Assembly (NCBI GenBank): GCA_027371715.1
Contig: DAHXMM010000020.1
Coordinates: 1-32,000 of the forward strand
Reading direction: 5' to 3'
Length of the DNA stretch: 32,000 nt
From: Elusimicrobiota bacterium
Lineage (GTDB): Bacteria; Elusimicrobiota; Elusimicrobia; UBA1565; UBA9628
Shown here: positions 3,001-31,277 of the stretch, piece after piece
Position numbering within the stretch: position 1 is the stretch's first letter
Layout: every line of letters starts with the position of its first letter
Translations under genes and position numbers: made by a program
Notes under the pieces: generated by a model
What the model was told of the DNA's origin: nothing
The model's database searches: none
The model's input: only the letters and a program-made list of their open reading frames with translations

Positions 3001-4481
3001 CTTTCCCGGCTGATTCCGGCATTATTCCCATCACCAAGTCTCCGGATGTCTTGAGCGTATTTCCGACCAACCTTATCAACCCCGCCGGCGTCGTTCAAGG
3101 CCAAAACGCGCCGGCGACGGAACTCAGTCTGATCACCCAGCACAGTTCGGTGACCTGGACGACGATTGCCGTCCAAAGAAGCGGGACCTTGCCGGATTCG
3201 GGAGTTGATTCCGTCAATGTTTATTACGACGCCGATCAAAACGGGGTGTTTGATTCCTCGGACGTCTTGGTCGGAAGCGCGCCGTTTGTTTCCGGAACGG
3301 CTAACATTTCTTTTTCCACCGCTCAGCTGGTCAATCCCGGAGGTTCGGACTATTTCGTCACGCTTCAAATCGATCCGAACGCCACACCCGGAGATACCAT
3401 TGGAATTTCTCTCTCTGGAAATTCTAACTTTAAGGTTTTGCCTCCAGATACGGTTTCGGGATCGAGCCTTCCTTTTAATTCGGCCCTGGCGCCGGTCTTA
3501 AACATAAAAACTCCGATCACGCCCGTCGTCACATTCCCCAATGGAGATTTTTCCAGTTCCTTTGACTCCATCGGATTTATCTGGTATTCGACCGTCGCCG
3601 TCGGGTCTATTTCAAGCGCGGCCTATGCCGTAGGAACGACGCCCGGGGGAACCGATATTGCGCCCTACACCAATATCCCTTTCGCCGCTTCCAGCTTTAC
3701 CGCGGTCAATCTTCTGCTCAGTAACGGCGCGACCTATTACGTATCTGTCGAAGCGACGTCCAACTACGGTTTTACCAGTCCGCCGGGAACCAGCCCCGGG
3801 TTCCTGGTCGATTTGATTACGCCCATGCCGCCGAGTAGTTTGACGGCTAATGTCGGAGTCAGCTCGATTTATCTCACCTGGAATCCCGGCAGCGCGGGGC
3901 CCTCGGGACTCGCGGGATACCTGCTTGAATATTCCGATGTCGAACATCCGACCTGGTATAACGCGAAAACCGGAGCGGTCTCCGCCCTGGAGATGGGGAC
4001 TGTCCCTAACTCCGCCAGCCCGCATTCCGTCTTGTCGGCGAATTTTATTTCCGCTTCGCCGTTCTTGTTCAATAGCCCGCCGCAAGGAACTCTGATGTTC
4101 CGCGTCAGTTCAGTCAACGGCGCGGGGGTACAAAGCGCGCCTTCCGACACCATTCGCGTGCTTTTTGGGACGCAATCGACGGCGGGAATATCCAACGTTT
4201 CCTCCTATCCCAATCCCTTTAATTCTAATTCCGGCGTGGCCACCATCGTCTATACCTTGGACGCGCCGGGAAGCGTCTCGATTCAAATCTACAGCGTCTT
4301 TGGAAGTCTCGTCAAAAGTTTCTCTTATTCCGGTGGAGGCACGGGGGGAGAAGCCGGAGTCAACACCGTCACCTGGGATGGGACGGATTCCGGGGGCCGC
4401 AAAGTATCGAAGGGAATTTACATTGCCGTCCTTAAAGCCAACGGCATGAGCGTCCAATACAAGATCGGGGTCAATCACTGA
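3..4481 (+). CDS. Very large secreted/surface protein (5' end outside window): fibronectin-III-like domains, five repeated ~150-aa modules, C-terminal FlgD-Ig-like domain
   Basis: Listed ORF starts at an internal TTG (180), but the frame is open back to position 3 (GDHPTSIGSIYESPDGVNWNLVYATST...). C-terminus YPNPFNSNSGVATIVYTLDAPGSVSIQIYSVFGSLVKSF...GVNTVTWDGTDSGGRKVSKGIYIAVLKA resembles FlgD Ig-like/sorting-type domains; FnIII-like YYWRVRTVDGFGGTSPWS. Confidence 0.85.
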   Translation, partial: GDHPTSIGSIYESPDGVNWNLVYATSTDANFGALSDFNGQLYAGSVNGSIYQITPVAATLAGSDGTNAAEKLSATGLNLVQSTSTVTCGGVSPCGATDQIIFTASDLAGNVLESGPYAILVDTTVAPAISTPSYPSNGAYLNYQTNFSWIGPSTTVVSGLLPPSFYQLEVSNNDPTFATTFVNISTPIPPVNTGLATDNGAYISTYTFANLTTYYWRVRTVDGFGGTSPWSETFNFTTDFSSPTAVNGSFATLNSLGGLVPETQVTVLQNGVTAQLNITDIGSGFSAFNSTDYSVRYSTNAGAVWISDPFSALAFTGLIGQTSTQTFTAYGLNLAASTNSIVCAGISPCGASNQIEFTFSDQAGNFTTAGPYAIIVDTHSTDVLVSTADVAPLGIPQNTSVAFIRLTLNSLAGTAPWTGLTVERLGSGTDSDVQNVAIYRDSLGTGIFSPSDTQITQNAVFSGGVVNLTMTNPESITTSTKTYFVVYTAAAGALVGDGLQAEITSTASFTFNGGYAMSAAQTTIYPLISSTATVVDGPNYLYITPTSKAPSDDPPGTANIEMLALKAYTNTGTSTLSKIVFNLLGTGASNDISAISIYRDSNGTGVYANNDELVTSGSDAFLNGVSTVAFTTTIASETVTTSPIYYFVLISLSPNAPLGDTLGVSISTPSNVELIDVLDTTTFTSNPAASSLLTIEYVNTLNVQGASQIPPSLLQGQEYAVLKASFTVSTGETAFDGMDITRLGLGHDSDISAVRIWQDPNPPEAFNPATFLQLSSGSFVNGNAQLNFPLQTLSAGTTYVYYVTYDISPTATQGDTLGGRITSNLDISDTNPGTTIVGNFSINSATSPVVPTTAGLFVGAQNVAPSDLLQGATNQQMLNLTMDTTQYSVLLGALTFNSLGTAASSDISRVEVYQDLVGNGILNTTKDPLLSALSYPFISGTGIIPFSSGITISTISITLLVAVDVSTGANYINNDFGIGIATQANISINSPNFVVPSTTTFPADSGIIPITKSPDVLSVFPTNLINPAGVVQGQNAPATELSLITQHSSVTWTTIAVQRSGTLPDSGVDSVNVYYDADQNGVFDSSDVLVGSAPFVSGTANISFSTAQLVNPGGSDYFVTLQIDPNATPGDTIGISLSGNSNFKVLPPDTVSGSSLPFNSALAPVLNIKTPITPVVTFPNGDFSSSFDSIGFIWYSTVAVGSISSAAYAVGTTPGGTDIAPYTNIPFAASSFTAVNLLLSNGATYYVSVEATSNYGFTSPPGTSPGFLVDLITPMPPSSLTANVGVSSIYLTWNPGSAGPSGLAGYLLEYSDVEHPTWYNAKTGAVSALEMGTVPNSASPHSVLSANFISASPFLFNSPPQGTLMFRVSSVNGAGVQSAPSDTIRVLFGTQSTAGISNVSSYPNPFNSNSGVATIVYTLDAPGSVSIQIYSVFGSLVKSFSYSGGGTGGEAGVNTVTWDGTDSGGRKVSKGIYIAVLKANGMSVQYKIGVNH
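3996..4006. repeat. Dispersed palindrome GGGACTGTCCC (inside the large surface-protein CDS)
   Basis: gagatgGGGACTGTCCCtaactccgcc; read as EMGTVPNS. Confidence 0.9.
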
Positions 4482-5110
4482 CATGAAAAAAAAAGGGACA
4501 GTCCCTTTTTCGGCCGCCCCACATGAGAATCCAGCCCCATTTTCTTTCTTGTCTCCAGCTCACATCCATCATCCACGATATATTTGTAAATCTCCACTCT
4601 CTTTTGGGAAAAGTCAGCCAAAGACAAATAAGCGGGGCTCTCTTCCAAAAAAGGGGACTGTCCCTTTTCTCCCAAATAAAAGCGATAACTGGACCAAGAA
4701 TAATCTTCCGGTTTCCGCGCGATGGCCGCGCGCACGGGATTTAACTCGATATAGCGGCCGCAAAGAAGAAGACTTCGGTCCGTCGGCAATAAAACGCTTT
4801 TATAGCGCCCCTGCCAGAGATGCCCCACCGAGGAATTTTTCTCTCGGAAATAATCGGAATACCCCTGTAAAAGCTTTTGCATCGCCTTGCTCAGGTCTTC
4901 CGGCTTTTGAACCTGGACCAAGAGATGAATATGGTTGGGCATCAGAACATAATGATGGATCCGAAAAGGATTTTTCACCTTGCTCCACCGCAGAATGTCC
5001 AAAAATCTCTCATAATCGGCTGTTTCATGGAACACGGCTTGACGATTATTCCCGCGCGCCATCAAGTGGTAAAACCCTCCTTCAATCAAATGTCTCCCGC
5101 ATCTTGACAT
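4475..5110 (-). CDS. REP-associated tyrosine transposase (RAYT, Y1_Tnp/IS200-like family)
   Basis: HUH motif in HYVLMPNHIHLLVQV, downstream GYSDYFREKNSSVGHLWQGRYKSVLL and YIELNPVRAAIARKPEDYSWSSYRFYLG, characteristic of RAYTs. Confidence 0.92.
   Translation of the reverse strand: MSRCGRHLIEGGFYHLMARGNNRQAVFHETADYERFLDILRWSKVKNPFRIHHYVLMPNHIHLLVQVQKPEDLSKAMQKLLQGYSDYFREKNSSVGHLWQGRYKSVLLPTDRSLLLCGRYIELNPVRAAIARKPEDYSWSSYRFYLGEKGQSPFLEESPAYLSLADFSQKRVEIYKYIVDDGCELETRKKMGLDSHVGRPKKGLSLFFSCQ
4495..4505. repeat. GGGACAGTCCC, A/T-flanked copy (inside RAYT 3' end)
   Basis: aaaaaGGGACAGTCCCttttt. Confidence 0.9.
4654..4664. repeat. GGGACTGTCCC inside RAYT CDS
   Basis: aaaaaaggGGACTGTCCCtttt; RAYT residues EKGQSPFLEE. 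Confidence 0.9.
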
Positions 5111-5186
5111 ATCAGAGTCTCCCCTTATCCGAATTATCTCCTACCTCTCATACGTCAAAAACGAGAAAAAAGTTCCCTCAAAAAAA

Positions 5187-5197
5187 GGGACAGTCCC
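5187..5197. repeat. GGGACAGTCCC, A/T-flanked copy
   Basis: AAAAAAGGGACAGTCCCTTTTTT perfect palindrome 5181-5203. Confidence 0.9.
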
Positions 5198-5205
5198 TTT
5201 TTTCA

Positions 5206-6765
5206 TTGATTCTAAACAAAAAAGGGACAGTCCCTTTTTTCTTATTTCTACTTCTCTCCTCCATATCGGCATCGGCCGCGAGCTTCTATGCGGGTTCTCC
5301 CAACGAGATATTTCAATTCGGCGCGGATGCCAGGGCCATGGGCATGGGCAACGCCTACACCGCCATTGCCGGTGGAGCGTCTTCCCTTTATTACAACCCG
5401 GCGGGCCTCGGTCTTCTCAATGGCCCCGATGTCAGCGCCATGCAGGCCAGTCTTATTGGCGGCGCGGCCTATGAAGATTTATCCTACGCCCAAAATTTCT
5501 CAAAAATGCCGGGAGCTTGGGGCGTTGAAGCCCTCAATATGGGAGTGGGAGGGGCCGAGCAAAGAGACTCTCAAAATAATCTCACCGGAAGCTTTGGTTT
5601 TCAAGAAACCGGATACGGAGCGGGATTTGGCCTAAGGAATGTCGTCATTCCGAACTTATCCTTGGGAGGCTCTTTTCAGGGGCTCAGCCGAAGCTTGGGC
5701 GGTAGTTCTTCCGACATGCTCTATGGAGCGAATTTGGGAGCCCAGTACGGCCCCTTTTTGGACAATATGGTGACCGCGGGTTTGGTCCTCCAAAACGGTT
5801 TTAACGGAGCGCAAAATACCTTTGACCGGCTACCCACGGTTTTACGCGCAGGGCTCGCCGTCACTCCCATCAATAATCTTCTCATTTCCGCGGATTACGG
5901 CGATGATGGCGATTACGGAATCGGCGCGGAATATCGAATATGGATGTTCGCCATACGAGCCGGATATATCCCCCAAGGCCTCACCTTCGGCGCCGGAATC
6001 TATTATCAATCTCTGGAAGCCGATGTCGCGATGGTCAACGATCCAATTTTTGGAATGGGGGAGAGATTCTCGCTTAATTACCGATTCGCGGGAAAGAAGA
6101 AAGAAAAGCCTCTTGAAGCTTACACTAATAGTTATCTGGATGCCGCAAAAAAAGAATTAAGTCTCCGCAATTATCTCAGCGCGCAATTCGCGCTTGAAGA
6201 AGCGATGGGAGTCTCTCCCGCTCAGATTCCTCAGACATGGAAAGAAAAACTCAAACTTCTTCAAGCTTTTAATGGCAGCCTAGATCTCAAAAACCGTCCG
6301 GATGAGGTCAAAACTCTCCTTGCAAAAGATCAACCGGCCATACTCGCCCAAAAATCGGTTTTTTCTTATTTAAACGGACGCGACGGAGACGCCATGATTT
6401 GGGCGTCCGTGGCAGCCGGAACCGCTCATAAATCCATGCCCTATATTGACTTTGTCAAGACGATGGCTTATCTTACGAATATGAAGGTTTCGGAAGGGGA
6501 TTTATTGCCTCCACCAGATTATGTTTCCAAAAAAATGGAGACTGCTCTTCATGCTATTTATCAAAAGCGTTTTGCCAATGCGGTTAAAAATTGCCAACAG
6601 GCCATCGTGGTAAACCCGAAAGAGCCTTCTGCCTGGACGCGGCTGGGTAGCGCTTATTTTGCCTGGGGACATAAGGATGAAGCCAAAAAAGCCTATCAGA
6701 AAGCTTTAGAGCTTGATCCCAAGAACGAAAATTTAAAGAAATTTATGGAGATGTATATCAAATGA
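5206..6765 (+). CDS. PorV/PorQ (UPF0164)-like outer-membrane beta-barrel protein with C-terminal TPR repeats
   Basis: FYAGSPNEIFQFGADARAMGMGNAYTAIAGGASSLYYNPAGLGLLNGPDVSAMQASLI is typical of the PorV-like family; C-terminal EPSAWTRLGSAYFAWGHKDEAKKAYQKALELDPKNENLKKF is a TPR. The track ORF starts at 4483, but 4483-5205 is antisense to the RAYT. TTG 5206 gives MILNKKGTVPFFLFLLLSSISASA/ASF, a plausible signal peptide. Start uncertain. Confidence 0.8.
   Translation: MILNKKGTVPFFLFLLLSSISASAASFYAGSPNEIFQFGADARAMGMGNAYTAIAGGASSLYYNPAGLGLLNGPDVSAMQASLIGGAAYEDLSYAQNFSKMPGAWGVEALNMGVGGAEQRDSQNNLTGSFGFQETGYGAGFGLRNVVIPNLSLGGSFQGLSRSLGGSSSDMLYGANLGAQYGPFLDNMVTAGLVLQNGFNGAQNTFDRLPTVLRAGLAVTPINNLLISADYGDDGDYGIGAEYRIWMFAIRAGYIPQGLTFGAGIYYQSLEADVAMVNDPIFGMGERFSLNYRFAGKKKEKPLEAYTNSYLDAAKKELSLRNYLSAQFALEEAMGVSPAQIPQTWKEKLKLLQAFNGSLDLKNRPDEVKTLLAKDQPAILAQKSVFSYLNGRDGDAMIWASVAAGTAHKSMPYIDFVKTMAYLTNMKVSEGDLLPPPDYVSKKMETALHAIYQKRFANAVKNCQQAIVVNPKEPSAWTRLGSAYFAWGHKDEAKKAYQKALELDPKNENLKKFMEMYIK
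5224..5234. repeat. GGGACAGTCCC, A/T-flanked copy overlapping a predicted signal peptide
   Basis: AAAAAAGGGACAGTCCCTTTTTT perfect palindrome 5218-5240. Confidence 0.9.
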
Positions 6766-6900
6766 AAGAAACGGAAAGTAAAAGAAAGTTACGGAAAGAA
6801 AATGAAAGAAACAGAAAAAGGCCTTACCTTGCTCTTCGTTCCTTTCTGTTGCTTTCCGTTACTTGCCGTTGCTTTCCGTTTCTTGCCGTTGCTCGCCGTT
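6761..6900. repeat. Inverted pair of imperfect 20-bp tandem arrays (three purine-rich units, then three pyrimidine-rich units)
   Basis: 6761-6820: aatgaaagaaacggaaagta / aaagaaagttacggaaagaa / aatgaaagaaacagaaaaag. 6841-6900: cctttctgttgctttccgtt / acttgccgttgctttccgtt / tcttgccgttgctcgccgtt. The reverse complement of unit 1 shares CTTTCCGTTTCTT with 6872-6884. Confidence 0.75.
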
Positions 6901-6903
6901 GCT

Positions 6904-6908
6904 GGAGG
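6904..6908 (+). promoter_or_regulatory. Shine-Dalgarno GGAGG upstream of ATG 6914
   Basis: gctGGAGGttatcATG. Confidence 0.7.
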
Positions 6909-6913
6909 TTATC

Positions 6914-9430
6914 ATGGACATCTTAATGATCGTTTTTATTCCCAGTCTTTTTATCATCCTGGGAGCCCTAATGTTTATCGTCAGCCGGGTGATGGAATTC
7001 TCGCAATCCAATCGTTATTTCGCAAAACAAAGAGGAAACAGCCTTATGTTTACGCGTTTCATGACTCAAATTGCCATGGCCAAAAGCCAACTTGGAAAAA
7101 GAGCCCAGGAATTGGAAGCTCTGTCCATGCGCCTTCAAATGAATAACGAAGAACTTGCCCGGCTCAACAACCTCAAAATGAAATTCTTATCAATGGCGGT
7201 TCATGATATTCGAAATCCACTCACCGCTATTACCGGTTACAGCGACATTTTGTCTCGCAACAAAAATCTAGGACCCAAAGAGCAGGTTTTGTCAAAAATG
7301 ATTTTGACCGCGACCCGGCAAATCAACCATCTGATGGGAGATCTCACCGATCTCGCCGTCATCGAAGCGGGAAAATTTAAAATGGAAATGGCGCCCTTTG
7401 ATCTGGCCGGACTCATCCAGGAAGTAGGGGCCACTTTGACCCCGGGAGCCTCCAACAAAGGCGTCATTCTTTCTGTTCGAGAACCTCCGCCCGGAATTAT
7501 CATCACCGCCGACCGCTACCGCATTTGGCGCGTTTTGACGAATCTTTTGGGAAATGCCGTTAAATTTACCCCTTCTGGAGGACGCGTCGAACTCCGGGCC
7601 GAAGTCGCGGCGGGAATGGCCATGATTTCAGTCCAAGACAACGGCCCCGGGATTCACCCGACCGAACGGCGGAAAATTTTTGAAAAGTTCTACCAGTCAA
7701 AACACATCAAAGATGAAAAAGCCCGCAAGGGCGGCTGGGGATTGGGACTGGCCATCGCCCAAGAAATTGTTCAGTCCCACGGGGGAGAAATCGGAGTCGA
7801 CAGCCGTGGTCTCGGACACGGTTCTACTTTTTGGGTTCGCATTCCTCTTAAAGCCAAGCGCCCCATCCGCTCCAGCCCCATGCGTCTTGCGCTCGCTTTA
7901 ATCGGGTTTTTAGCGCTCTCTTTGGCGCCGAAAAAAACTCAGGCTCAAACTGTTCCCTTCCTTGAAAAATCAAAATTCGAAAAATCATTGGAAACCAAGG
8001 TGGACGGAGTCCTTCTCAATATCTTGGGGCCCAATCGAGCCAAAGTCATCATCAACGCGACCCTCAATTTCACAAAAACCGAAAGCTTTCAAACCGAAGG
8101 CGCCAGCATCACGACGACAAAAACCTCGGGGCTTCCGTATCTTTGGCAAGAACCCAGTAAAACGGCGCAACCCGAAGAGTTGCTACCGGGAGTGCCGCTT
8201 GATTCCGGCGGCCCGGCTCTTCCCACGCCGCCGCCATCCATCAAGGGCTATAAAAAAGAAGATTCCTTCCCCGCCGAATTTATCAAAAGATTAGACGTCA
8301 CTCTCATTTTGGATAATTCCGTCAAGGGAAACCGGAGCGCCGAAATCGGCAAAATTACGGCCGATCTTCTCAGTCTCAATCCTAAACGAGGAGATTCTCT
8401 GACCGTGGTCCACACCGAGTTTTCTCCGATCTGGAAAACCGTTTGGTACTCTCCGGAAACTGCCGGTATGCTTCTTAAATATATTTTAACCGGATTTCTC
8501 TTTTTTATGGCGCTCATCGTCATCGCCGTCGGATTTATCAAAATCGCCAACGCCATGCGCATGATGGCCAACGCACAATCCCAGCAAATCTCAATGGAAA
8601 TGAAGGGGCTTGATGGCGAGGGGGGAAATGGACCGGGCGGAGTTTTAGGACATAATACGCTCATGATTGGGGATCAGAAATCGGGAGAAAACGCCCCTGA
8701 AAACAAAAACGAACCGGTCATGTTTGACGTGCGAATGGACCAAGTAGAAACCCTGGCTCAAATGCTTCTCCCCGAACCACCTGAAAATGTCGCCATTGTT
8801 GCCTCGCGCTTGACTCCGGATGTTTCAAAAAGGCTCATCGACGCCCTCCCGCCGGAACTGGCGAGCGCGGTCGTCAGTCAACTCGCCCGCCCGCGCTTTA
8901 TCGATCCGGAAATTATCGTCAACTTAAAGGAAGAGTTAGAACGGCGTCTTTCCGGCGCGGTCGGAGGAGTGCATTATCTCGCGGAACTGATGTCGGCCGC
9001 CAGCCAAAAAAGGCGTCATGAAATGCTGGAAGCCGTTCGCTCTCAAAACCAAAACCTCGCCGAGGAACTCAGAAAACGAGTCTTTTTCATCGAGGATCTC
9101 TCAAAACTAACCCAACAAGAATGGTCGTATCTCTTGTCCTTGGTCACTTATCAAGAATGGAGCGCCGGTCTCCATGAGGGTCCCCAAGTCGTCGTTGAAG
9201 CCATCAAACAAAATGTCTCAGAAAAAGCCTGGGGGGTTCTCAGCGAGATGATTGAAGCGGCTTCTCCCACAACAGAACAAACAGAAACGGCGCAAGATAA
9301 AATCGGTCAAAGCGTCTCAGAACTCATCCGGGAACAAAGAATCAAAACCATTGCGCCGCAATTGGGACTTCAAATTCATGAATCTCCAGTTGAAGAAGAA
9401 AAAGGCGCGGAAAGTAGTAAGGGCTCGTGA
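6914..9430 (+). CDS. Histidine kinase (HisKA-HATPase_c) fused in frame to FliF C-terminal-like periplasmic domain, a TM helix and FliG-like M/C domains
   Basis: N-terminal TM MDILMIVFIPSLFIILGALMFIVSRV; H-box SMAVHDIRNPLTAITGYSDIL; N-box NLLGNAVKFTPSGG; G1 VQDNGPGI; G2 GGWGLGLAIAQEIV. Then TM/signal-like MRLALALIGFLALSLAP; FliF_C-like FEKSLETKVDGVLLNILGPNRAKVIINATLNF and IKRLDVTLILDNSV...AEIGKITADLLSLNPKRGDSLTVVHTEFSP; TM LLKYILTGFLFFMALIVIAVGFI; FliG-like ENVAIVASRLTPDVSKRLIDALPPELASAVVSQLA...GGVHYLAELMSAASQKRRHEMLEAVRSQNQNLAEELRKRVFFIEDLSKL...QNVSEKAWGVLSEMIE. The track start at 6863 precedes the better RBS-supported ATG at 6914. Confidence 0.85.
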   Translation: MDILMIVFIPSLFIILGALMFIVSRVMEFSQSNRYFAKQRGNSLMFTRFMTQIAMAKSQLGKRAQELEALSMRLQMNNEELARLNNLKMKFLSMAVHDIRNPLTAITGYSDILSRNKNLGPKEQVLSKMILTATRQINHLMGDLTDLAVIEAGKFKMEMAPFDLAGLIQEVGATLTPGASNKGVILSVREPPPGIIITADRYRIWRVLTNLLGNAVKFTPSGGRVELRAEVAAGMAMISVQDNGPGIHPTERRKIFEKFYQSKHIKDEKARKGGWGLGLAIAQEIVQSHGGEIGVDSRGLGHGSTFWVRIPLKAKRPIRSSPMRLALALIGFLALSLAPKKTQAQTVPFLEKSKFEKSLETKVDGVLLNILGPNRAKVIINATLNFTKTESFQTEGASITTTKTSGLPYLWQEPSKTAQPEELLPGVPLDSGGPALPTPPPSIKGYKKEDSFPAEFIKRLDVTLILDNSVKGNRSAEIGKITADLLSLNPKRGDSLTVVHTEFSPIWKTVWYSPETAGMLLKYILTGFLFFMALIVIAVGFIKIANAMRMMANAQSQQISMEMKGLDGEGGNGPGGVLGHNTLMIGDQKSGENAPENKNEPVMFDVRMDQVETLAQMLLPEPPENVAIVASRLTPDVSKRLIDALPPELASAVVSQLARPRFIDPEIIVNLKEELERRLSGAVGGVHYLAELMSAASQKRRHEMLEAVRSQNQNLAEELRKRVFFIEDLSKLTQQEWSYLLSLVTYQEWSAGLHEGPQVVVEAIKQNVSEKAWGVLSEMIEAASPTTEQTETAQDKIGQSVSELIREQRIKTIAPQLGLQIHESPVEEEKGAESSKGS

Positions 9431-9498
9431 CAAAATAATAACAGTCTCTATTTACTTCGTCATTTCTTCATGATTCAATACCATTTTTGTTCTATCCT

Positions 9499-10443
9499 AT
9501 GGGTATGGCTGAAAGTCCGAAAGGTTCCATCTTTTCCTCCTTAAGGGCGCTGGAAGAAATTCCGGAAGAAACTCCCGCCGCGCCTCCGACTTCGCAAAAC
9601 CCTTCACCCTCTCCCACCCCCGCCGCACAAACACCAACGCCCACGCCGCCACCTTCGCAAGCGCCTCCTCCATCAGATGAGACTTTGAAAGCCGTGGAGT
9701 CAAAAATCGAAAAGTTAGAACAAAAAATCCAGGAGATGGGGACAGTCCCCAATTCAGACCCTCATCTTAACCGTATTGAAGCCCTGGAGCAAAAATTGCA
9801 ACAAATGCAGGAACGCGCCATTCAGGCGGAGGTCGCTCTCAGAGAGCGCGAGAAATCCCAAGAAGCCGCCCGGCGCGAGACGGAATCTCTTCTTCAAAAT
9901 TTAGCGTCCCAGCGCCGGCTTGAAGAATCGGACCGGCAAATGAAGGAAAATCTGGCTTATTGCCGACGCCGAATCGAAGAATTGGAGGAAAAACAATCCT
10001 CTATTAAAATTCCGGATACCCAACAATCGGAAAATGAGTTTAAATCCCTCCTAAAAAGTTTTATGGAACAGATCGAGCTAAAAACAACTCCGGTTTTAGC
10101 GTCTCTTGTTGATCTCAGGAAAGAAAATGAAAACCGCGAAAAAGAAAATCGCGGCATGGAGCAAAGGATAAACGAGATTGAGAAAAATATCAATTCTTTT
10201 TTTTCGACAGAGTTAGGGCAAGCGAGCGCTCTAGCAGAAGGATTACGCCACCTAAAACAAACCGTGGAACGAGTCAACACGGAAACCGCGGAAAAACTCG
10301 AAAAAATAAGCGCCGCTCTAAGCCTATTAGAATTTAGGCATTCCCAAGCGAAAAACACAACAGAAGAATTACGCGCTCTCGATAAAGACTTTCAGAAAAT
10401 ACTCTCCATTCTCGATGCCAGCGTTTCCAACTCGCCCAAATAA
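9499..10443 (+). CDS. Pro-rich linker plus long coiled-coil protein, no recognised family
   Basis: PSPSPTPAAQTPTPTPPPSQAPPPS, then heptad-rich ETLKAVESKIEKLEQKIQE...; ATG 9499 preferred over TTG 9487. Confidence 0.75.
   Translation: MGMAESPKGSIFSSLRALEEIPEETPAAPPTSQNPSPSPTPAAQTPTPTPPPSQAPPPSDETLKAVESKIEKLEQKIQEMGTVPNSDPHLNRIEALEQKLQQMQERAIQAEVALREREKSQEAARRETESLLQNLASQRRLEESDRQMKENLAYCRRRIEELEEKQSSIKIPDTQQSENEFKSLLKSFMEQIELKTTPVLASLVDLRKENENREKENRGMEQRINEIEKNINSFFSTELGQASALAEGLRHLKQTVERVNTETAEKLEKISAALSLLEFRHSQAKNTTEELRALDKDFQKILSILDASVSNSPK
9739..9749. repeat. GGGACAGTCCC inside coiled-coil CDS
   Basis: TGGGGACAGTCCCCA 9737-9751; read as EMGTVPNS. Confidence 0.9.
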
Positions 10444-10444
10444 A

Positions 10445-10455
10445 GGGATAGTCCC
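10445..10455. repeat. Degenerate copy GGGATAGTCCC between coiled-coil gene and motA
   Basis: One mismatch; directly after stop codon TAA. Confidence 0.7.
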
Positions 10456-10500
10456 TATTAGTATTTGGAATTCTCTTTTCTTTCCTATATAATAAGCAAC

Positions 10501-11238
10501 ATGGAACTAACATCGATCATCGGTCTAGGGGCTATTCTAATTTTAACTGCGATTGGCCTTGCCACTGGAGGGCTTCCGGCGGTTTTCATCAACTGGCATG
10601 GAATTGGAATCGTGCTTGGGGGAACTTTTTGCGCCCTCATGATCAACACCCCACTGGATATTTTGCTCAGAACCGGATCGTCTGTGACCGATTTAATTTC
10701 GGCCGATCCTTATGTCGACCGGATCGCTCTTGTGGACGCCATCATGACACTAGCACAAGAGGTTCAATCCCGGGGAATTAACGCCTTTAACAATGTCAAT
10801 AAAACAGTGGCCGCCGGGTATCTCGCTTACGCCGCTCAAATCGCGGTTGAATATAACAACCCTGAAACCCTCCGACAGGTGCTGGAAAATGAGATCATTC
10901 AAAATTCCGATTTACAGAACGAAGCGGTCAACGTTTTTAGAACCGCCGGAATTTTGGCGCCGATGTTCGGACTTTTGGGAACCTTAATTGGAATTGTCGA
11001 GGTTCTGCGCCAAATCGCCAACCCCGCACAAGTGGGTTCCGCCATGGCGGTCGCCATTACGACCGCTTTTTATGGCATCGCGACCGCAAACGTTTTTTGC
11101 GTGCCGATAGCCGGTAAACTAAGAATTCGCTACTGGAGAGAAACGCAGGCCAAGACCATGATTTTGGAAGGCGTCTTTGAAATCCTCCAGCGAACGCCCG
11201 CCGTCATTATCTCGCGGAAACTGAAATCTTATCTATGA
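10501..11238 (+). CDS. motA: MotA-like stator proton/ion channel subunit (MotA/TolQ/ExbB superfamily)
   Basis: MELTSIIGLGAILILTAIGLATGGLPAVFINWHGIGIVLGGTFCALMINTP; AGILAPMFGLLGTLIGIVEVLRQIANPAQVGSAMAVAITTAFYGIATANVFCVPIAGKLRIR. Confidence 0.9.
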   Translation: MELTSIIGLGAILILTAIGLATGGLPAVFINWHGIGIVLGGTFCALMINTPLDILLRTGSSVTDLISADPYVDRIALVDAIMTLAQEVQSRGINAFNNVNKTVAAGYLAYAAQIAVEYNNPETLRQVLENEIIQNSDLQNEAVNVFRTAGILAPMFGLLGTLIGIVEVLRQIANPAQVGSAMAVAITTAFYGIATANVFCVPIAGKLRIRYWRETQAKTMILEGVFEILQRTPAVIISRKLKSYL

Positions 11239-11246
11239 ATGAATTG

Positions 11247-11257
11247 GGGACTGTCCC
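11247..11257. repeat. GGGACTGTCCC between motA and motB
   Basis: gaattgGGGACTGTCCCtaattatt. Confidence 0.9.
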
Positions 11258-11269
11258 TAATTATTAATT

Positions 11270-11962: not shown

Positions 11963-11976
11963 AAGGGAGATCAAAA

Positions 11977-15735: not shown

Positions 15736-15812
15736 GGGACTGTGCCTCTTCTTCATAATTCTTAAGGGCGGCACTGTCCCGACCTTAAGGTTCTAAGGAA
15801 AGGGACAGTCCC
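15736..15812. repeat. Cluster of three copies: GGGACTGTGCC (15736), GGCACTGTCCC (15770), GGGACAGTCCC (15802)
   Basis: Direct reading of the DUF3307-thiolase intergenic region. Confidence 0.8.
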
Positions 15813-19242: not shown

Positions 19243-19268
19243 GACTTTTTGATTTTACAAAATAATTA

Positions 19269-19279
19269 GGGACTGTCCC
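19269..19279. repeat. GGGACTGTCCC between tRNA-Val and FAH gene
   Basis: TTAGGGACTGTCCCTAA 19266-19282, perfect palindrome around a single central T. Confidence 0.9.
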
Positions 19280-19290
19280 TAACTCTGATC

Positions 19291-20328: not shown

Positions 20329-21529
20329 GCGCGGAGACGTCCCTAAAACCCCACACACTGAATTTTACGGGCGAAAAAATATTCTGTCTTTGGAAGAAAT
20401 CCACGGCACCTACGGTTTTTCCGGAGCTTTCTCCCGGAAGATGCACTTGCGTCGCTACCCGACGATTCAAATAGAAAGCCCTAAACTCCTGCCATTAAAC
20501 CTCAGTAGTCCCGTTCTTAAGGACGCGCCGCTCAGCCCCTATCATCTTTTGACCGGAAAAATACCCTCTCAAGGGGTTTTCGAGCGTTCAAGGCATTGTC
20601 TTCTCAAAGGTCCAAGCGCCGTGATTTCAGTTTCCAAACCAACGAATTCTTCTCCTGAAAATGATTTTTTTCGAAACGCGGAAAGGCACGAATGTCTTTT
20701 CGTACAAGAAGGAAACGGAATTTTGGCCAGCGAATACGGCGAGCTCAAATTTCAAGAAAAAAAATATCTCGTCATTCCCAAGGGAACGACCTATCAATTC
20801 CGCCTTTCAAGTAAACGCGCCTTCTTTCTAATCATTGAATCTCTCTACCCTATTCGCTTTGCCCCGCATTACCTTAACTCCGAGGGACAAGCCACTTTGA
20901 TGTCTCCGGTCATTGAGACTGAAATTGGCATTCCCCAGCTCAAAGAGCCTCTGGACATCTCGGGGAAGTTTAACATCCTCTCTAAACATGACGACGGGAA
21001 AATGACAAAGATTGTCTTGGGGCATCACCCCTTTGATCTCATCGGCTGGGAAGGCGCGCTTTACCCCTTTACCTTTGACTCATCCGATCATCATTCCATC
21101 GCGCGCGAAATTCACACCGCCCCGCCGGTTCGGCAAACCTTTCAAGCGGGAAACGCGCCCCATAGCGGATTTTCAATCTGCACTTTCCGCGCTCAAATCG
21201 AGGGATGGAACCCCAAGGACGTGCCCGCGCCCTATGCGCATTATAATGTTGACTCCGATGAAATGATGTTCTTTTCAAACACAAGCTACGGGGCCCGGAA
21301 AGGAATCGTTGAACCCGGTTCCATCACCTTTCATCCCTCGGGTCTTCCGCATAGCCCGCATGGAGACGCCGCAAAAAAGTCCTTTAAATCTCGCGGCACA
21401 CTGTCGGATTATCTAGCCGTCATGTTGGATACATTTTTTGAATCTCTTCAGCCCACAAAAGAAGCCCTTAAATATTGCGACTCCCAATATCCGCTGAGTT
21501 GGGCCAAAGCGGAAGGGGACTGTCCCTAA
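20312..21529 (+). CDS. hmgA: Homogentisate 1,2-dioxygenase-like protein
   Basis: PHTEFYGRKNILSLEEIHGTYGFSGAFSRKMHLRRYPT; HYNVDSDEMMFFSNTSYGARKGIVEPGSITFHPSGLPHSPHGD. ATG 20312 (MSLIVKRGDVPKTPHTEFYG) preferred over 20228, which lies in the FAH gene. Confidence 0.85.
   Translation: MSLIVKRGDVPKTPHTEFYGRKNILSLEEIHGTYGFSGAFSRKMHLRRYPTIQIESPKLLPLNLSSPVLKDAPLSPYHLLTGKIPSQGVFERSRHCLLKGPSAVISVSKPTNSSPENDFFRNAERHECLFVQEGNGILASEYGELKFQEKKYLVIPKGTTYQFRLSSKRAFFLIIESLYPIRFAPHYLNSEGQATLMSPVIETEIGIPQLKEPLDISGKFNILSKHDDGKMTKIVLGHHPFDLIGWEGALYPFTFDSSDHHSIAREIHTAPPVRQTFQAGNAPHSGFSICTFRAQIEGWNPKDVPAPYAHYNVDSDEMMFFSNTSYGARKGIVEPGSITFHPSGLPHSPHGDAAKKSFKSRGTLSDYLAVMLDTFFESLQPTKEALKYCDSQYPLSWAKAEGDCP
21516..21526. 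repeat. GGGACTGTCCC at the hmgA 3' end
   Basis: gcg gaa gGG GAC TGT CCC TAA; the repeat supplies the last codons and leads into the stop. Confidence 0.9.
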
Positions 21530-21533
21530 CTCC

Positions 21534-22142: not shown

Positions 22143-22157
22143 AGAGAGGGCATTGCT

Positions 22158-22907
22158 ATGAAAAAACCGTTCATGAACTTTGTCGTTGACCACATGACTT
22201 TTCTCGTCGAACCGCGTTTTTATCCCGTCACATACGCTCTTTTTAGAATTATCTTTGGTCTTGGGGATGAAGACATCATCTACAATAAACGCCGAAAATG
22301 GCCTGGCGAGAACCAGGAAAAATCAATGACCTTTGCCGCCCGGCTTGGACGTTATGAGGGAAAGCCAGGACTCGATCAATCCATCATAGCTGTCGTTCAG
22401 CCCTCCGAACCCGAATCCCAGCCGTCTCACGTCCGGGAAATGCTTAAAAACCGAGGAGGATCCGCTCATTGGCAGCATATTGCTCTGAGAACGCCGGATT
22501 TAATGGCCTTTCACAAATACGCGCTTGAGCGCGGGGTCAATTTCATTACGCCTATTCTCAAAGACGCGGAAGAAGATTTAATTCAGGTCTTTAGCGGCGA
22601 GTGGAAGCTCCCCGGAATGCCGTCCAGCGGAATCTTTTTTGAGTTTGTCCAGAGAAACCCCTCCGCCGAACTCCTTGAGAAAATTACATCCAACCGCGAG
22701 GCTTTCTTTCGGGATAAAACTTTCTTGGGCCTTTACCAAGAAAAGGAAGCTGAATATCAAAGCAAAAAAGTTCGCCCTTTTATCGATGACGATCTTTTCT
22801 TTCAAATGGAAAAATCCTTGGCGGGGAAACCTATTTGGGAATTGACAGCTCAAGATTTGCGCCTCGTGGAAGAAAAAATGAAAAACTATGCCCATTCAGC
22901 GGTTTGA
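22158..22907 (+). CDS. Short 4-hydroxyphenylpyruvate dioxygenase-like VOC protein
   Basis: FVVDHMTFLV; HWQHIALRTPDLMAFHKYALERGVNFI; GIFFEFVQR. Candidate metal ligands H, H, E. Confidence 0.65.
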   Translation: MKKPFMNFVVDHMTFLVEPRFYPVTYALFRIIFGLGDEDIIYNKRRKWPGENQEKSMTFAARLGRYEGKPGLDQSIIAVVQPSEPESQPSHVREMLKNRGGSAHWQHIALRTPDLMAFHKYALERGVNFITPILKDAEEDLIQVFSGEWKLPGMPSSGIFFEFVQRNPSAELLEKITSNREAFFRDKTFLGLYQEKEAEYQSKKVRPFIDDDLFFQMEKSLAGKPIWELTAQDLRLVEEKMKNYAHSAV

Positions 22908-22909
22908 TA

Positions 22910-22920
22910 GGGACTGTCTA
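22910..22920. repeat. Degenerate/deleted copy GGGACTGTC-TAACTC between convergent genes
   Basis: tgataGGGACTGTCTAACTCtgg; retains the CTAACTC flank seen at four other copies. Confidence 0.7.
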
Positions 22921-23703
22921 ACTCTGGGGAGGGGGATAAGGTAGTCCGCGCACGGAAAACTCGGCGCTGACATCGCCCAAAATAGCGTTTTCGCCAAAAG
23001 CCGCCATCTCAAGCCTGGCCGAATTAAGCGTTTTCTTCCCACGGCGGATATTGAGGTGAGAGATAAAAACCTTTCCAGAACTCGCGAAATTTTCGCTAAA
23101 GCCAATTTTTTGATCTTCTAATTGATGAGAATTTAAAAACTTTTCCTTTTGACTTCGGTCTAAGATTGAAACAATGACCGGCTGAACCTTAGTCAAACGA
23201 GTTTTCGAAATAAAAAATCTTAACTCCAAATGTTTGCGCAAATCTTTCAAGGATTTAGGAAATAGAGAAACAATAAATTCTCCATTCGAGGAATTTCCGT
23301 AAAATGCGGAAAAGACTTTGGCGGAAGACTCCTCGCCCTTTAAGGCTTTTTTAAGCGTCACTTTTTTAGTCTTTTTGTTTTTAATTTTCTCAACTACATT
23401 TTGAATCTGGCGCACAAAGAAGGCGGATTTAAAGTTTTTCTTTTTCTCTTTAAAAACTTGAATGGGCTTCCAATGGACCGAATCCTTAGGAATGAAAACC
23501 TCTACGGATGCCTTATATTTTTTCTTTTTTTTCTTTAAACTTCCTTTTTTATTTTCTTTCTTAGGACGTTTAAGGGCCAATTTGTGATTAGATTTTGATT
23601 TTTTCGTTGAGGTGCTTGTGGCGACGTTTTGAGCCGGCAAAACAGTAGGAAATGCCGCCCCTAAAAAAAACCACGCCATTAAAATCGAAAAAAATTTTTT
23701 CAA
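22918..23703 (-). CDS. Hypothetical exported Lys-rich protein
   Basis: Signal peptide MKKFFSILMAWFFLGAAFPTVLPAQ followed by a highly basic segment KRPKKENKKGSLKKKKKKYK; 4-bp overlap with valS. Confidence 0.7.
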   Translation of the reverse strand: MKKFFSILMAWFFLGAAFPTVLPAQNVATSTSTKKSKSNHKLALKRPKKENKKGSLKKKKKKYKASVEVFIPKDSVHWKPIQVFKEKKKNFKSAFFVRQIQNVVEKIKNKKTKKVTLKKALKGEESSAKVFSAFYGNSSNGEFIVSLFPKSLKDLRKHLELRFFISKTRLTKVQPVIVSILDRSQKEKFLNSHQLEDQKIGFSENFASSGKVFISHLNIRRGKKTLNSARLEMAAFGENAILGDVSAEFSVRGLPYPPPQS

Positions 23704-26414
23704 GCGAGAACCTTAATCAATTCTTCAAGGCGCGCTTTTTTAGAGAGCGCCGTATCCTGGAGAAACCGCGTTTCAGAGACCTCTTCCATAGCCGCTTTTG
23801 AAAGATAATTGGGATCAGAGAGCTTCTGCGATAATTTGCCCAAATCGTTTTCAACTTTTCCAAGCTCTTTTTTTAAGCGTTCAGATTCTTTCTTAAAATC
23901 AATCAAGCCTTCAAGCGGAACATAGAAGGTAAAGTGCGGAGTCACCGTGGAAGCCGCCTTGGTGGGCAGAGATTCTCGCTTAGAACTTAAGAAAGAAATC
24001 TCTCTTCCCCCGGCTAACGCCGCTAAATAAAGAAGATTCTCTTTTAAGAAGTTTGTCTCTGCGGCGTCTTCGCTTTGACAAATGACGGGAATCTTAAGCC
24101 CTGGAGAGATGCCCAGCTGCGCGCGCAAGGACCTTAAAGACTTAACCGCTTCAATTAAAGCGCTCATTCCTTTTTGGGTTTCTTCCGTAATTTTAATTTC
24201 CGGGACATTTGGAAAACGGGAATTCATCAAAAAATCCGCGGGTTCGGTATCCCAAGTTTTTAGGACCGAATAAATTTCTTCCGTGACAAAAGGCATCAAG
24301 GGATGAAGCATTTTAACGACGCCATTTAAAACGGTTATTAAAACGCGAAACGCCGTTTTTTTGGCTCTTAGATCGGCGCCTTGAAGGCGGAGTTTTGCTA
24401 TTTCTACATACCAATCGCAAAACTCATCCCACAAAAACTCATACATTTTCTCCGTCGCGTTGGCGAGATTATAAATTTCAATTTCTTCTTGAACGGAAAG
24501 AATCATCTTTTGGTATTCAGACAAGATCCAAACATCCGCCGCCTCTAATTGGAAGTTAGGGACTGTCCCTAACTCTTCAGGGGCGACCGCATTCATCAAG
24601 GCAAAGCGCGCGGTATTCCAGAGTTTATTGGTAAAATTTCGTCCGGCAATCAGCGAATCTTCCGAAAATAAGATGTCTTTTCCGGGACGGGCTTGGGAAA
24701 TTAAGGAAAAGCGAAGAGCGTCGGTTCCATATTTGTCCATCATCTCGATCGGATCGATAACGTTTCCGAGAGACTTCGACATTTTTTTTCCCTTTTTATC
24801 GCGAATGATGCCGTGGATAAACGCTTCGGAAAAGGGGACCTTCCCGGTTAAATAGAGACCCATCATCTGCATACGAGCGACCCACAGATAGATAATTTCG
24901 TATCCCGTGACGAGAATTTGAGTTGGGTAATAACGCTGGAGATCCTGATTTTTTTCCGGCCAGCCAAAAACGGAGAAAGGCCAAAGGGCCGAGGAAAACC
25001 AGGTGTCTAAAACGTCGGGGTCTTGAATCAATTCCAAATGACCGCAAACAGAACAAGCCTTTGGCTTTTCGCGAGAGACCACTCCCCTAAGATTAGGAAT
25101 TTGATGGAAAGATGAGTCTTTTGAAATCGCGTTGCATTTAAGACAGTACCAAACGGGAATTTCATGTCCCCACCAAATTTGGCGGGAGACGCACCAATCG
25201 CGAATATCGAGGAGCCAGTTCCTATAAGGCTCTTTCCAGGAGGCCGGATAAATTTTAAATTGGTTATTCTCCAAAGTCTTCAAAGCCCCGGCGGCCAAGT
25301 CCTTGGTTTTAACAAACCACTGCCAGGAAAGAAGCGGTTCAATAATTTCCTGACAACGATAACAAATTCCGACCGCGTGCGGATGGGTTTCCGTCTTTTC
25401 CAAAAAGCCTTGGAATTCCAAGTCTTGAATAATTTTTTTGCGCGCATCTTCTCTGGACAATCCGGCATAAAGGCCGCCTTCTTCAGTGATTTTTCCGGAA
25501 GGGGAAATGACCTTGATGCGGGGAAGTTGATGCCGAAGACCCATTTCAAAGTCATTGGGATCATGAGCGGGAGTGACCTTGACGGCTCCCGTTCCAAAAG
25601 AAGACTCGACAAAACCATCTTCAATCACCGGAATTTCTCGGTTCACAAGCGGCAAGCGAAGTTTTTTTCCAATTAAAGACCGATAGCGCTTGTCCTCGGG
25701 GTAAACGGCGACCGCGACATCTCCCAGCATGGTTTCAGGCCGGGTGGTGGCCACAACCAACCCCGGTCCGCCGGAAGCCTCCGGGTAGCGGATATGCCAG
25801 AGATTTCCCTTTCTTTCCTCATGCTCAACTTCTATGTCGGATAAAGCCGTTCCGCATCTCACGCACCAGTTGACCAACCGCTCCCCGCGGTAAAGAAGCC
25901 CGTCATCCCACAATTTTTTAAACGCCTCAAAAACGGCCGCTTTTCGTTTTTCATCCATCGTAAAGGACTCACGGCTAAAATCAAGCGAACATCCGAGTTT
26001 CTTGAGTTGCCCCAAAATCGTCTCTTTACAATGAAGCGTCCAATCTTCCATGCGCTGGGTAAAAGCCTCCCTTCCAATTCTAACGCGAGAAGTGTTTTCA
26101 GCCTTTAAAATTTTTTCCATTACGGTTTGAGTCGCGATGCCGCCGTGATCGGTTCCAGGAACCCAGCAGAGATCTTTTCCTGACATTCTCTTTAAGCGGG
26201 CCAGAAAATCTTGAATGGTATTATTGAGCGCATGCCCAACATGAAGCGCTCCCGTTACATTCGGAGGGGGAATGACCAGGGAATACGGTTCTTGATTTAA
26301 ATCAGGATGAGAATTGAAAATCCCCGATTGAGCCCAATGGTTCACCCAGCGAGCCTCAACATCCTTGGGACTATAGGCTTTGTCCCAGGTTTTTATTTCG
26401 GTCGTTTCATTCAT
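23700..26414 (-). CDS. valS: Valyl-tRNA synthetase
   Basis: IPPPNVTGALHVGHALNNTIQDFLARLKRMSGKDLCWVPGTDHGGIATQ; GKKMSKSLGNVIDP; C-terminal coiled-coil. Confidence 0.98.
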   Translation of the reverse strand: MNETTEIKTWDKAYSPKDVEARWVNHWAQSGIFNSHPDLNQEPYSLVIPPPNVTGALHVGHALNNTIQDFLARLKRMSGKDLCWVPGTDHGGIATQTVMEKILKAENTSRVRIGREAFTQRMEDWTLHCKETILGQLKKLGCSLDFSRESFTMDEKRKAAVFEAFKKLWDDGLLYRGERLVNWCVRCGTALSDIEVEHEERKGNLWHIRYPEASGGPGLVVATTRPETMLGDVAVAVYPEDKRYRSLIGKKLRLPLVNREIPVIEDGFVESSFGTGAVKVTPAHDPNDFEMGLRHQLPRIKVISPSGKITEEGGLYAGLSREDARKKIIQDLEFQGFLEKTETHPHAVGICYRCQEIIEPLLSWQWFVKTKDLAAGALKTLENNQFKIYPASWKEPYRNWLLDIRDWCVSRQIWWGHEIPVWYCLKCNAISKDSSFHQIPNLRGVVSREKPKACSVCGHLELIQDPDVLDTWFSSALWPFSVFGWPEKNQDLQRYYPTQILVTGYEIIYLWVARMQMMGLYLTGKVPFSEAFIHGIIRDKKGKKMSKSLGNVIDPIEMMDKYGTDALRFSLISQARPGKDILFSEDSLIAGRNFTNKLWNTARFALMNAVAPEELGTVPNFQLEAADVWILSEYQKMILSVQEEIEIYNLANATEKMYEFLWDEFCDWYVEIAKLRLQGADLRAKKTAFRVLITVLNGVVKMLHPLMPFVTEEIYSVLKTWDTEPADFLMNSRFPNVPEIKITEETQKGMSALIEAVKSLRSLRAQLGISPGLKIPVICQSEDAAETNFLKENLLYLAALAGGREISFLSSKRESLPTKAASTVTPHFTFYVPLEGLIDFKKESERLKKELGKVENDLGKLSQKLSDPNYLSKAAMEEVSETRFLQDTALSKKARLEELIKVLA
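24559..24569. repeat. GGGACTGTCCC inside valS
   Basis: GTTAGGGACTGTCCCTAAC 24555-24573, perfect 19-bp palindrome; valS residues EELGTVPNF. Confidence 0.92.
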
Positions 26415-29226: not shown

Positions 29227-29229
29227 GCT

Positions 29230-31206: not shown

Positions 31207-31248
31207 CGATTATTCTTATTATTATATCACGTTCAGGGAAAATAAGAA

Positions 31249-31277
31249 CGGGAATTGAGGACAGTCCCCAATTCCCG
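31249..31277. repeat. 29-bp near-perfect palindrome containing a degenerate copy
   Basis: CGGGAATTGAGGACAGTCCCCAATTCCCG, one mismatched pair (31258/31268). Confidence 0.85.

Follow-up and report, generated by a model that had tools for sequence, protein, structure and literature searches.

A stretch of 32,000 nucleotides (nt) from an uncultured Elusimicrobiota bacterium (assembly GCA_027371715.1, contig DAHXMM010000020.1, positions 1 to 32,000; hereafter the window) carries a dispersed family of the palindrome GGGACWGTCCC, where W is A or T. This palindrome is most probably the core of a repetitive extragenic palindromic (REP)-like family cognate to a REP-associated tyrosine transposase (RAYT) of subclass 2.1 that is encoded in the same window. 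The palindrome is over-represented and sits within a unit of defined anatomy, its copies bracket a gene identified as a RAYT, units have been gained and lost between related species, and the family is restricted to one small clade.

Copies of the palindrome and anatomy of the unit

A pattern search of the window recovered 11 exact copies of GGGACWGTCCC, at positions 3996, 4495, 4654, 5187, 5224, 9739, 11247, 15802, 19269, 21516 and 24559. A first-pass annotation of the same DNA had listed these copies and had put the number expected in 32 kb at 0.015; its arithmetic is correct, and the excess was borne out by 100 dinucleotide-preserving shuffles of the window, in which the mean count was 0.01 and the maximum 1. 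The five degenerate copies in that list were likewise present, four with one mismatch each (10445, GGGATAGTCCC; 15736, GGGACTGTGCC; 15770, GGCACTGTCCC; 31258, AGGACAGTCCC) and one with two (22910, GGGACTGTCTA). When up to two mismatches were allowed, 22 sites were found in the window compared to 5.5 expected, and the commonest 10-mers of the window come from this family. An additional match with one mismatch, absent from the earlier list (GGGACTGGCCC, 15549-15559, inside the DUF3307 gene), may be a decayed copy or due to chance.

An artefact of assembly or base composition, for which the origin of the window in a metagenome-assembled genome could be held to speak, has a negligible probability. 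Nine independent contigs, obtained from different samples and assemblers and 99.6-100% identical, have the same copies in the same places, which excludes an assembly artefact; the count in the shuffles and the presence of the family in related species argue against the remainder of this explanation. These contigs match the metagenome-assembled genome GCA_021796015.1, and homologues of the valyl-tRNA synthetase (ValRS) assign the organism to Elusimicrobiota.

The copies had been described as lying mostly at gene junctions, which holds in part. Five of the 11 exact copies lie wholly between genes (5187, 5224, 11247, 15802 and 19269) and two lie on the 3′ ends of genes (4495, in the tail of the RAYT gene, and 21516, in the last codons and TAA stop of an HgmA-like gene), but four are internal to coding sequences (3996 in a giant surface-protein gene, 4654 in the RAYT gene, 9739 in a gene for a 314-aa protein and 24559 in valS). 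Based on our gene map and calculation, intergenic DNA accounts for ~2.9% of the window yet holds 5 of the 11 exact copies (binomial p ~1e-5). The RAYT gene and the copies are located as follows, the copies being given without strand.

4475..5110, minus strand: RAYT gene, 211 aa, HUH/Y1, TnpAY1 subclass 2.1 type (Y1_Tnp, REP_Tyr_transpos, motifs, synteny)
3991..4011: 21-nt in-frame insertion AGATGGGGACTGTCCCTAACT in the giant surface-protein gene, adding EMGTVPN
4489..4511: copy at the RAYT 3′ end (core 4495-4505), encoding the last RAYT residues and adjoining the convergent giant gene
4649..4669: copy inside the RAYT coding sequence (core 4654-4664), encoding EKGQSPF
5181..5240: doublet upstream of the RAYT gene, cores 5187 and 5224, 77 and 114 nt before the RAYT start, with A6/T6 flanks
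9734..9754: copy in the 314-aa gene (core 9739-9749), encoding MGTVPNS
10440..10460: decayed copy GGGATAGTCCC in the spacer separating the 314-aa gene from motA
11242..11262: copy AATTGGGGACTGTCCCTAATT in the 31-nt motA/motB spacer
15736..15812: ~85-nt composite of degenerate copies 15736 and 15770 and exact copy 15802, upstream of a thiolase gene
19264..19284: copy AATTAGGGACTGTCCCTAACT between a tRNA gene and an FAA-hydrolase gene
21511..21531: copy at the HgmA-like/flavin-reductase junction, giving the last codons and TAA stop of the HgmA-like gene
22905..22925: decayed copy GGGACTGTCTA where two genes of unknown function converge
24554..24574: copy AGTTAGGGACTGTCCCTAACT in valS, a perfect 21-nt palindrome encoding LGTVPNF
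31250..31276: decayed copy AGGACAGTCCC in a conserved 27-nt palindrome, GGGAATTG...CAATTCCC, between speA and a CDGSH gene

Alignment of the copies extended the core to a 21-nt palindrome, AGTTAGGGACWGTCCCTAACT. Dispersed copies in the window read AGTTA-GGGACWGTCCC-TAACT, and the four copies in 4475-5240 have A/T-tract arms (A5-6-GGGACWGTCCC-T5-6). The core is identical in three related species, here called B, C and D, while the preferred arms differ.

Species B (GCA_027401815.1, loci L010 and L016), typical unit: AAAAAG-GGGACWGTCCC-CTTTTT
Species D (GCA_021829385.1, locus L014), typical unit: GAAATA-GGGACWGTCCC-TATTTC
Window species and species C (GCA_027406905.1, locus L017, syntenic with the right half of the window), typical unit: AGTTA-GGGACWGTCCC-TAACT

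Flank complementarity among 36 distinct copies from this clade was 72-92% at offsets 1-5, 53% at offset 6 and 14-33% beyond (chance ~25%). Because complementarity falls to about chance past offset 6, the unit was delimited at 21 nt, possibly up to 23, and this pattern points to a unit defined by its structure. Three arrangements were found: singlets, doublets ~37 nt apart and, once, an ~85-nt composite hairpin. Either single strand of the unit is predicted to form a short hairpin, with folding energies of -5 to -7.6 kcal/mol for singlets as single-stranded DNA. Under the same prediction the doublet at 5181-5240 forms a single long hairpin (dG -20.2 kcal/mol, z -6.7) and the composite at 15736-15812 one of ~85 nt (dG -21.8 kcal/mol, z -6.3). 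The unit falls within the 20-40 nt of REPs, and with 37 exact cores over ~100 kb in the four species, the family shows the high copy number and stem-loop structure of REPs. Stop codons are absent from two of the three reading frames of the 21-nt unit, and the third reads TAA, which provides the stop at 21516. A strand or orientation bias of the TAACTC arm was considered and dropped, as the species C copy at the same junction preserves this arm well on the other side. Since GGGAC is a type IIS site, a restriction-site or methylation reading was also considered, but the window offers no evidence on it.

The resident RAYT and the motif at its flanks

The open reading frame at 4475-5110 matches Pfam Y1_Tnp (PF01797, E=1.4e-15) and scores 87.4 bits against the NCBIfam model REP_Tyr_transpos (NF047646, cut-off 80), whereas the IS200 model NF033573 fails (22.8 bits, cut-off 55). 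Its HUH motif is NHIH (residues 59-62), followed by HLWQGRYK, a catalytic tyrosine in GRYIELNPV and a tail reading YSWSSY...GRP, and it keeps every invariant residue of a 38-member family alignment. The sole match in the PDB is E. coli TnpArep (4ER8, 26.9 bits). Key motifs reported for TnpAY1 subclass 2.1 are NHVH or NH[YF]H, W[EQ] and YIELNP or Y[IV]HLNP (PMC6006769 Table 1), together with a C-terminal tail bearing an SS motif and a median length of 238 aa (PMC6006769). Quentin et al. 2018 (PMC6006769) equated this subclass with the TIRYTs, enzymes encoded by genes flanked by terminal inverted repeats (TIRs). Judged by signature motifs and length rather than phylogenetic placement, the window RAYT fits the subclass 2.1/TIRYT/Bertels Group 1 signature, with isoleucine for valine in NHIH.

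The gene appears to be maintained in place. Its slot, between a TPR gene and the giant surface-protein gene, is syntenic in the window, species B and species D; the orthologues are 70% identical in B and 66% in D, and the ratio of non-synonymous to synonymous divergence (dN/dS) is ~0.16 versus B. The giant gene and the RAYT gene are convergent and their 3′ ends overlap by 7 nt (4475-4481). A protein scan of genome-collection representatives with the RAYT returned no relative.

A clear concentration of copies was observed around this gene. Four of the 11 exact copies lie within ~740 nt (two upstream, one internal and one at the 3′ end), while the other seven are dispersed over the 32 kb, an arrangement corresponding to the bracketed gene of a REPtron. 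The RAYT genes of species B and D similarly have two copies upstream, one internal and one or two at the 3′ end. The upstream doublet is kept in species B with a diverged spacer. The internal copy, which sits in a variable stretch of the conserved tail, occupies the same position in species B (L010 10447) and D (L014 3566). At the 3′ end, species B has a doublet and is 37 nt longer than the window, where 4495 is a singlet.

The inverted repeats that flank TIRYT genes contain the motif GGGGWSAS (Di Nocera et al. 2013, PMC3733652). Copies in species B read GGGGACAG, an exact GGGGWSAS, and those in the window read GGGACAG or GGGGACTG, such that the window palindrome looks like a GGGGWSAS half joined to its own reverse complement. 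Another Elusimicrobiota RAYT, 52% identical, is bracketed by an inverted pair of a variant, AAAAGGGGACAGACCCCTTTT (locus L015; variant sequence GGGGACAGACCCC). In 80 metagenomic loci encoding RAYT homologues of 33-49% identity, GGGGWSAS occurred at 1.93/kb beside the homologue versus 0.27/kb elsewhere, a 7-fold difference. In 40 of 73 loci the motif lay on the coding strand in the 300 nt preceding the gene, at a median distance of 70 nt from the start (77 and 114 nt for the window copies), and in 28 of 71 its reverse complement was present downstream; the arms in these loci are complementary around a 13-nt core.

The system described here therefore resembles the TIRYTs or TIRtrons (PMC3733652; subclass 2.1 in PMC6006769; RAYT Group 1 in PMC5581495) in its NH[V/I]H, WQ and YIELNP motifs, its SS tail and a length within 211-240 aa, as well as in having the gene bracketed by inverted GGGGWSAS. 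TIRYT genes are low-copy and chromosomal. Published families include self-complementary TIR repeats in dimers or clusters (PMC3733652), as observed here. The window system differs in that the motif is fused with its own complement into a perfect 21-nt palindrome, in its far greater abundance, ~1 copy per 3 kb across ~100 kb from four species, and in its in-frame entry into coding sequences. For comparison, TIR families were described as moderately abundant (PMC3733652) and Group 1 RAYTs as having ~12 copies of flanking 16-mers (PMC5581495). A term search of the former survey found no mention of Elusimicrobiota (PMC3733652).

Gain, loss and retention of units among sister species

Comparison of orthologous loci had been proposed in the first-pass annotation as a way to define insertion boundaries and any target duplication. 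The copy at 3996 proved to be an exact 21-nt insertion, missing from the orthologous site CTGG^CCGC in both B and D. Its boundaries are exact and no target bases are duplicated, unlike an insertion with terminal inverted repeats and a target-site duplication. Reciprocally, at another place in the giant gene, species B alone has an in-frame insertion of 36 nt. Species B also has a doublet at the TPR/kinase junction and a ~100-nt composite at the kinase/314-aa junction, neither of which is present in the window, and doublets where the window has singlets at 4495 and 21516. The composite at 15736-15812 is >90% identical to two unrelated species B sites (L010 ~5660-5740 and ~18365-18445). At the 22910 junction an exact copy is found in species C and none in species B.

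Other positions are shared. Cores are present in every species available at the motA/motB, DUF3307/thiolase, tRNA/FAA-hydrolase and HgmA/flavin-reductase junctions: species B has a copy with A5/T5 flanks at the first; the 15802 core occurs in all three species available at the second; the 19269 core is kept at the same site in B and C with its central base flipped; and at the last, the copy of species C is single and read in another frame, and species B has a doublet. Since synonymous divergence (dS) between the species is 0.6-1.2, near saturation, the four shared junction cores are not neutral leftovers. Decay was also observed, with the 10445 copy decayed differently in species B and the 31258 site keeping its arms in B around a core decayed to GGAAAAATTCC. 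With regard to the refuting condition of an ancient fixed signal at identical orthologous positions, positions are not always the same between species, although four junctions are common to three species.

The family was not found in more distant relatives. No copies were detected in 38 kb from two further Elusimicrobiota (ValRS 56-57% identical, partly syntenic), the HgmA junction included; in one of these (L218) that junction is 1 nt long and without a copy. Because both lack copies, the family represents a clade-level expansion rather than an ancient fixed signal.

Taken together, these results support the first option of the first-pass annotation, a REP-like or miniature inverted-repeat transposable element-like unit, as one linked to the resident RAYT: the RAYT is intact, it is bracketed in three species, a related motif flanks its homologues at a fixed distance on both sides, and units are gained and lost. 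Mobilisation by this RAYT and the chemistry involved are inferred, and the proposed working follows that established for E. coli TnpArep and the IS200/IS605 transposases. By this analogy, the RAYT would bind the unit hairpin in single-stranded DNA, for example at a replication fork, and would cut and rejoin beside it, thereby adding, removing or replacing units. Insertions would persist in tolerant protein loops owing to the 21-nt length and the absence of stops in two of three frames.

Short words can also become hyperabundant in and between genes through other processes, as illustrated by HIP1 of cyanobacteria and by the uptake signal sequences and DNA uptake sequences (USS/DUS). The palindrome could be such a word, spread in place by substitution (biased repair, a methylation-linked process, or uptake bias with recombination), with the RAYT incidental or merely the source of the word. 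The copy in valS fits this explanation. It lies in a length-variable surface loop, reading LGDLQDF in species B and other sequences elsewhere, and the change from LGDLQDF to LGTVPNF occurred without change in length relative to B (nor does length differ from D), with 12 differences in 24 nt and flanks ~85% identical. Similarly, the 9739 copy aligns with a species B stretch, TTAGGAAATCTCCCAATC, that is identical at 14 of 21 positions and differs by just 3 nt in length. The same core with species-specific arms at three orthologous junctions, the persistence of the four junction cores at this dS and a density of ~1 per 3 kb, within the range of uptake sequences, could be read in the same way, as could the likeness to HIP1 and USS/DUS in having some in-place instances without length change.

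However, substitution alone does not describe what was found. Whole units come and go with exact boundaries (in-frame insertions of 21 and 36 nt, singlet-to-doublet differences of 37 nt and the ~100-nt composite), the ~85-nt composite recurs at unrelated sites with >90% identity, and a related motif brackets the gene throughout the RAYT family. HIP1 and USS/DUS have no dedicated flanked transposase-like gene, unit insertions and deletions or composites; uptake sequences are not palindromic, and their flanks do not covary to preserve pairing. The valS and 314-aa copies remain compatible with an in-place mode, and these, like the arm differences, could be old insertions decayed in B, as at 10445 and 31258, or replacements of resident copies. 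We consider spread of a word in place very unlikely.

The conservation at junctions raises a further explanation, in which the palindrome is an immobile host cis-element, either an operator for a dimeric factor or a terminator or RNA-stability hairpin selected at junctions. Its dyad symmetry is perfect, the copies at 11247, 15802, 19269 and 21516 lie just 5′ of start codons, and four junction copies are conserved in three species. Copies with A/T-tract arms near the RAYT gene, along with most copies in species B, resemble bidirectional intrinsic terminators, some of which were found by a terminator scan. Against this, terminator-like sites were not enriched overall in the terminator and promoter scan (38 versus 31.6 expected), and the dispersed window form has TAA arms and no T-run, so that it departs from an intrinsic terminator except near the RAYT. 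One copy lies in the 31-nt motA/motB spacer, within an apparent operon, and four are inside coding sequences. The arms vary but stay complementary, which fits a hairpin and not a sequence-specific duplex operator; the number of units at a junction (singlet or doublet) varies among species, and the orthologous junction in a more distant relative is without the element. Rfam applied to the whole window returned one tRNA only and no RNA family over the repeat. A purely host-encoded signal is therefore very improbable, though a co-opted, secondary role of terminator or stabiliser type is possible and compatible with a REP-like family. The protein-binding-site and structural-signal options raised in the first-pass annotation are compatible with it as well, the unit presumably being a binding hairpin of the RAYT.

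The same core in other phyla and relation to known systems

To place the core more widely, 185,579 species representatives were scanned for two cores 15-45 nt apart. At least 120 doublet loci with the exact core were found, compared to ~4 expected by chance at uniform base composition by our calculation. Among the matches listed, many phyla are represented, Planctomycetota most frequently, alongside Actinomycetota, Bacillota, Proteobacteria, Kiritimatiellia, Omnitrophota, Saccharibacteria and others; several genomes matched more than once, and arms and spacer are particular to each genome. RAYT-like open reading frames adjoin exact-core clusters in Planctomycetia (L061) and Kiritimatiellae (L057). 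A third lies 2 kb from a doublet (L018), where the RAYT repeats are ordinary GGGGACAC inverted repeats and not the palindromic core, which makes it weak support. With regard to the other refuting condition in the first-pass annotation, a similar density in unrelated genomes lacking a RAYT, the same core does occur in unrelated phyla; at L061, L057 and L018 a RAYT-like open reading frame accompanies it. For the two conditions together the outcome is mixed and does not refute a REP-like unit. Clustering of the open reading frames in the 120 listed doublet loci revealed no other recurrent neighbour gene family.

Within these loci, further structure was apparent. The Kiritimatiellae locus has six TTCTTCGGGGACAGTCCCCAG-like units at 160-385, ~330-560 nt upstream of the RAYT-like open reading frame (NHLH), and another copy inside that frame at 1060. 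In Bacillaceae, doublets of six loci (L069, L075, L084, L085, L107 and L133) share an aacgcgtta-like spacer between two differently armed cores, which suggests a family-level composite element. Planctomycete doublets share an inner hairpin, GATTTTCG...CGAAAATC.

One tentative extension is that the GGGGAC-W-GTCCCC hairpin is a widely shared recognition site of subclass 2.1/Group 1, the largest RAYT class and one treated in the literature as having few REPs or none; this class may seed REPIN-like populations in many phyla and also overwrite resident copies in place. Such overwriting would account for arms that differ between species at orthologous sites and for the unchanged length at the valS and 314-aa copies. 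We regard this as possible but doubtful.

Several known systems share features with the family. Canonical REPs and REPtrons (E. coli TnpArep, 4ER8; Nunvar 2010, Ton-Hoang 2012, Messing 2012) likewise combine short, GC-rich, high-copy palindromes enriched between genes with a single bracketed HUH/Y1 gene that is vertically inherited at a fixed locus, each RAYT lineage having its own repeat variant. The window units differ in being perfect, unbulged palindromes with no GT[AG]G/CGTC foot, so that both strands give approximately the same hairpin; the RAYT belongs to a different subclass, and over half of the copies overlap genes. REPINs (Bertels and Rainey 2011, PMC3116915) resemble the family in that short-spacer doublets fold into one long hairpin and singlets resemble remnants, as well as in their long vertical persistence with a RAYT and the conservation of some positions between species. 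Unlike in REPINs, an inverted orientation cannot be defined for palindromic units, singlets dominate the window, and the RAYT group is not among the REPIN-associated groups 2 and 3. In a full-text literature search, the motif strings were found only in unrelated eukaryotic and viral primer sequences.

The units within genes have precedents of their own. Rickettsia palindromic elements, reportedly described by Ogata et al. in 2000, are said to form in-frame inserts in protein-coding genes. Like these elements and intragenic REPs, the window units lie in frame in variable loops, including those of a tRNA synthetase and a transposase gene; they span 7 codons compared to 20-50 residues for most reported inserts, and the RAYT subclass differs. 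REPs inside genes, tRNA synthetase genes among them, were already described (PMC3733652), as were REPs inside tnpAREP genes of subclass 2.4 (PMC6006769).

A number of observations weigh against assignment to a RAYT-cognate REP family. No REPs were reported for subclass 2.1 (PMC6006769). The unit is a perfect rather than an imperfect palindrome, unlike canonical REPs; no GT[AG]G or CGTC is found at the stem foot, where the arms are AGTTA/TAACT, A5/T5 or GAAATA/TATTTC; and, unusually for REPs, 6 of the 11 exact copies overlap coding sequence. Simple insertion is insufficient to account for species B having its own arm type on the same core at three shared junctions, or for the valS 24559 and 314-aa 9739 copies being essentially length-neutral relative to B. 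The exact 11-mer occurred in none of the 80 RAYT homologue loci, the link having emerged with the looser GGGGWSAS, and in 117 of the 120 listed doublet loci no RAYT was detected by tblastn or hidden Markov model search within the fetched locus of up to 8 kb. Finally, the clade sample consists of ~100 kb over four species.

The genes around the copies showed additional features. In the TPR/kinase spacer (6759-6910), a 10-nt periodic purine-rich array of GAAAGNNACG (~5 units) is followed by a pyrimidine-rich, CTTTCCGTTG-like complement (~8 units); together they form a 54-nt inverted repeat, 78% complementary, at the junction where species B instead has a palindrome doublet. The conserved cluster at 6914-15011 encodes a fusion protein (a histidine kinase joined to the middle and C-terminal domains of FliG, plus a faint match to the FliF C-terminus), the 314-aa coiled-coil-like protein, MotA, MotB, a HEAT-repeat protein and a CHASE2 adenylate/guanylate cyclase. 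It looks like a stator-plus-FliG signalling module, syntenic in species B, with no other flagellar genes in view. The giant secreted or surface protein (1-4481, continuing upstream; L001 10630-18105) is longer than 2,490 aa and contains Ig/fn3-like repeats as well as an FlgD_ig-like domain at the C terminus. Identity with the species B orthologue is 72%, and the two bear reciprocal lineage-specific in-frame repeat insertions. The tRNA gene (19171-19242, minus strand, Rfam 70.6 bits) lies 27 nt from the 19269 copy, and 19291-22907 holds a homogentisate-pathway-like cluster of FAA hydrolase, a divergent HgmA-like dioxygenase, flavin reductase and a glyoxalase/4HPPD-like protein.

What is new here is the host phylum, the perfect 21-nt palindrome, the density of ~1 per 3 kb and the recurrence of an identical core across phyla. 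The units break assemblies, and recognising them aids the curation of metagenome-assembled genomes. They also make or extend open reading frames, as in the RAYT tail, the HgmA stop codon and the inserts in valS and the surface protein. With a 21-nt palindrome, one enzyme and clean in-frame inserts, this compact system is a handy substrate for tests of hairpin spread by HUH/Y1 enzymes, and the identical 11-nt core in many phyla offers a testable lead on recognition by subclass 2.1. The findings extend the REP-RAYT partnership to Elusimicrobiota and to a RAYT subclass reported to be without REPs, and suggest that this verdict on subclass 2.1 came from the sampling of cultured Proteobacteria.

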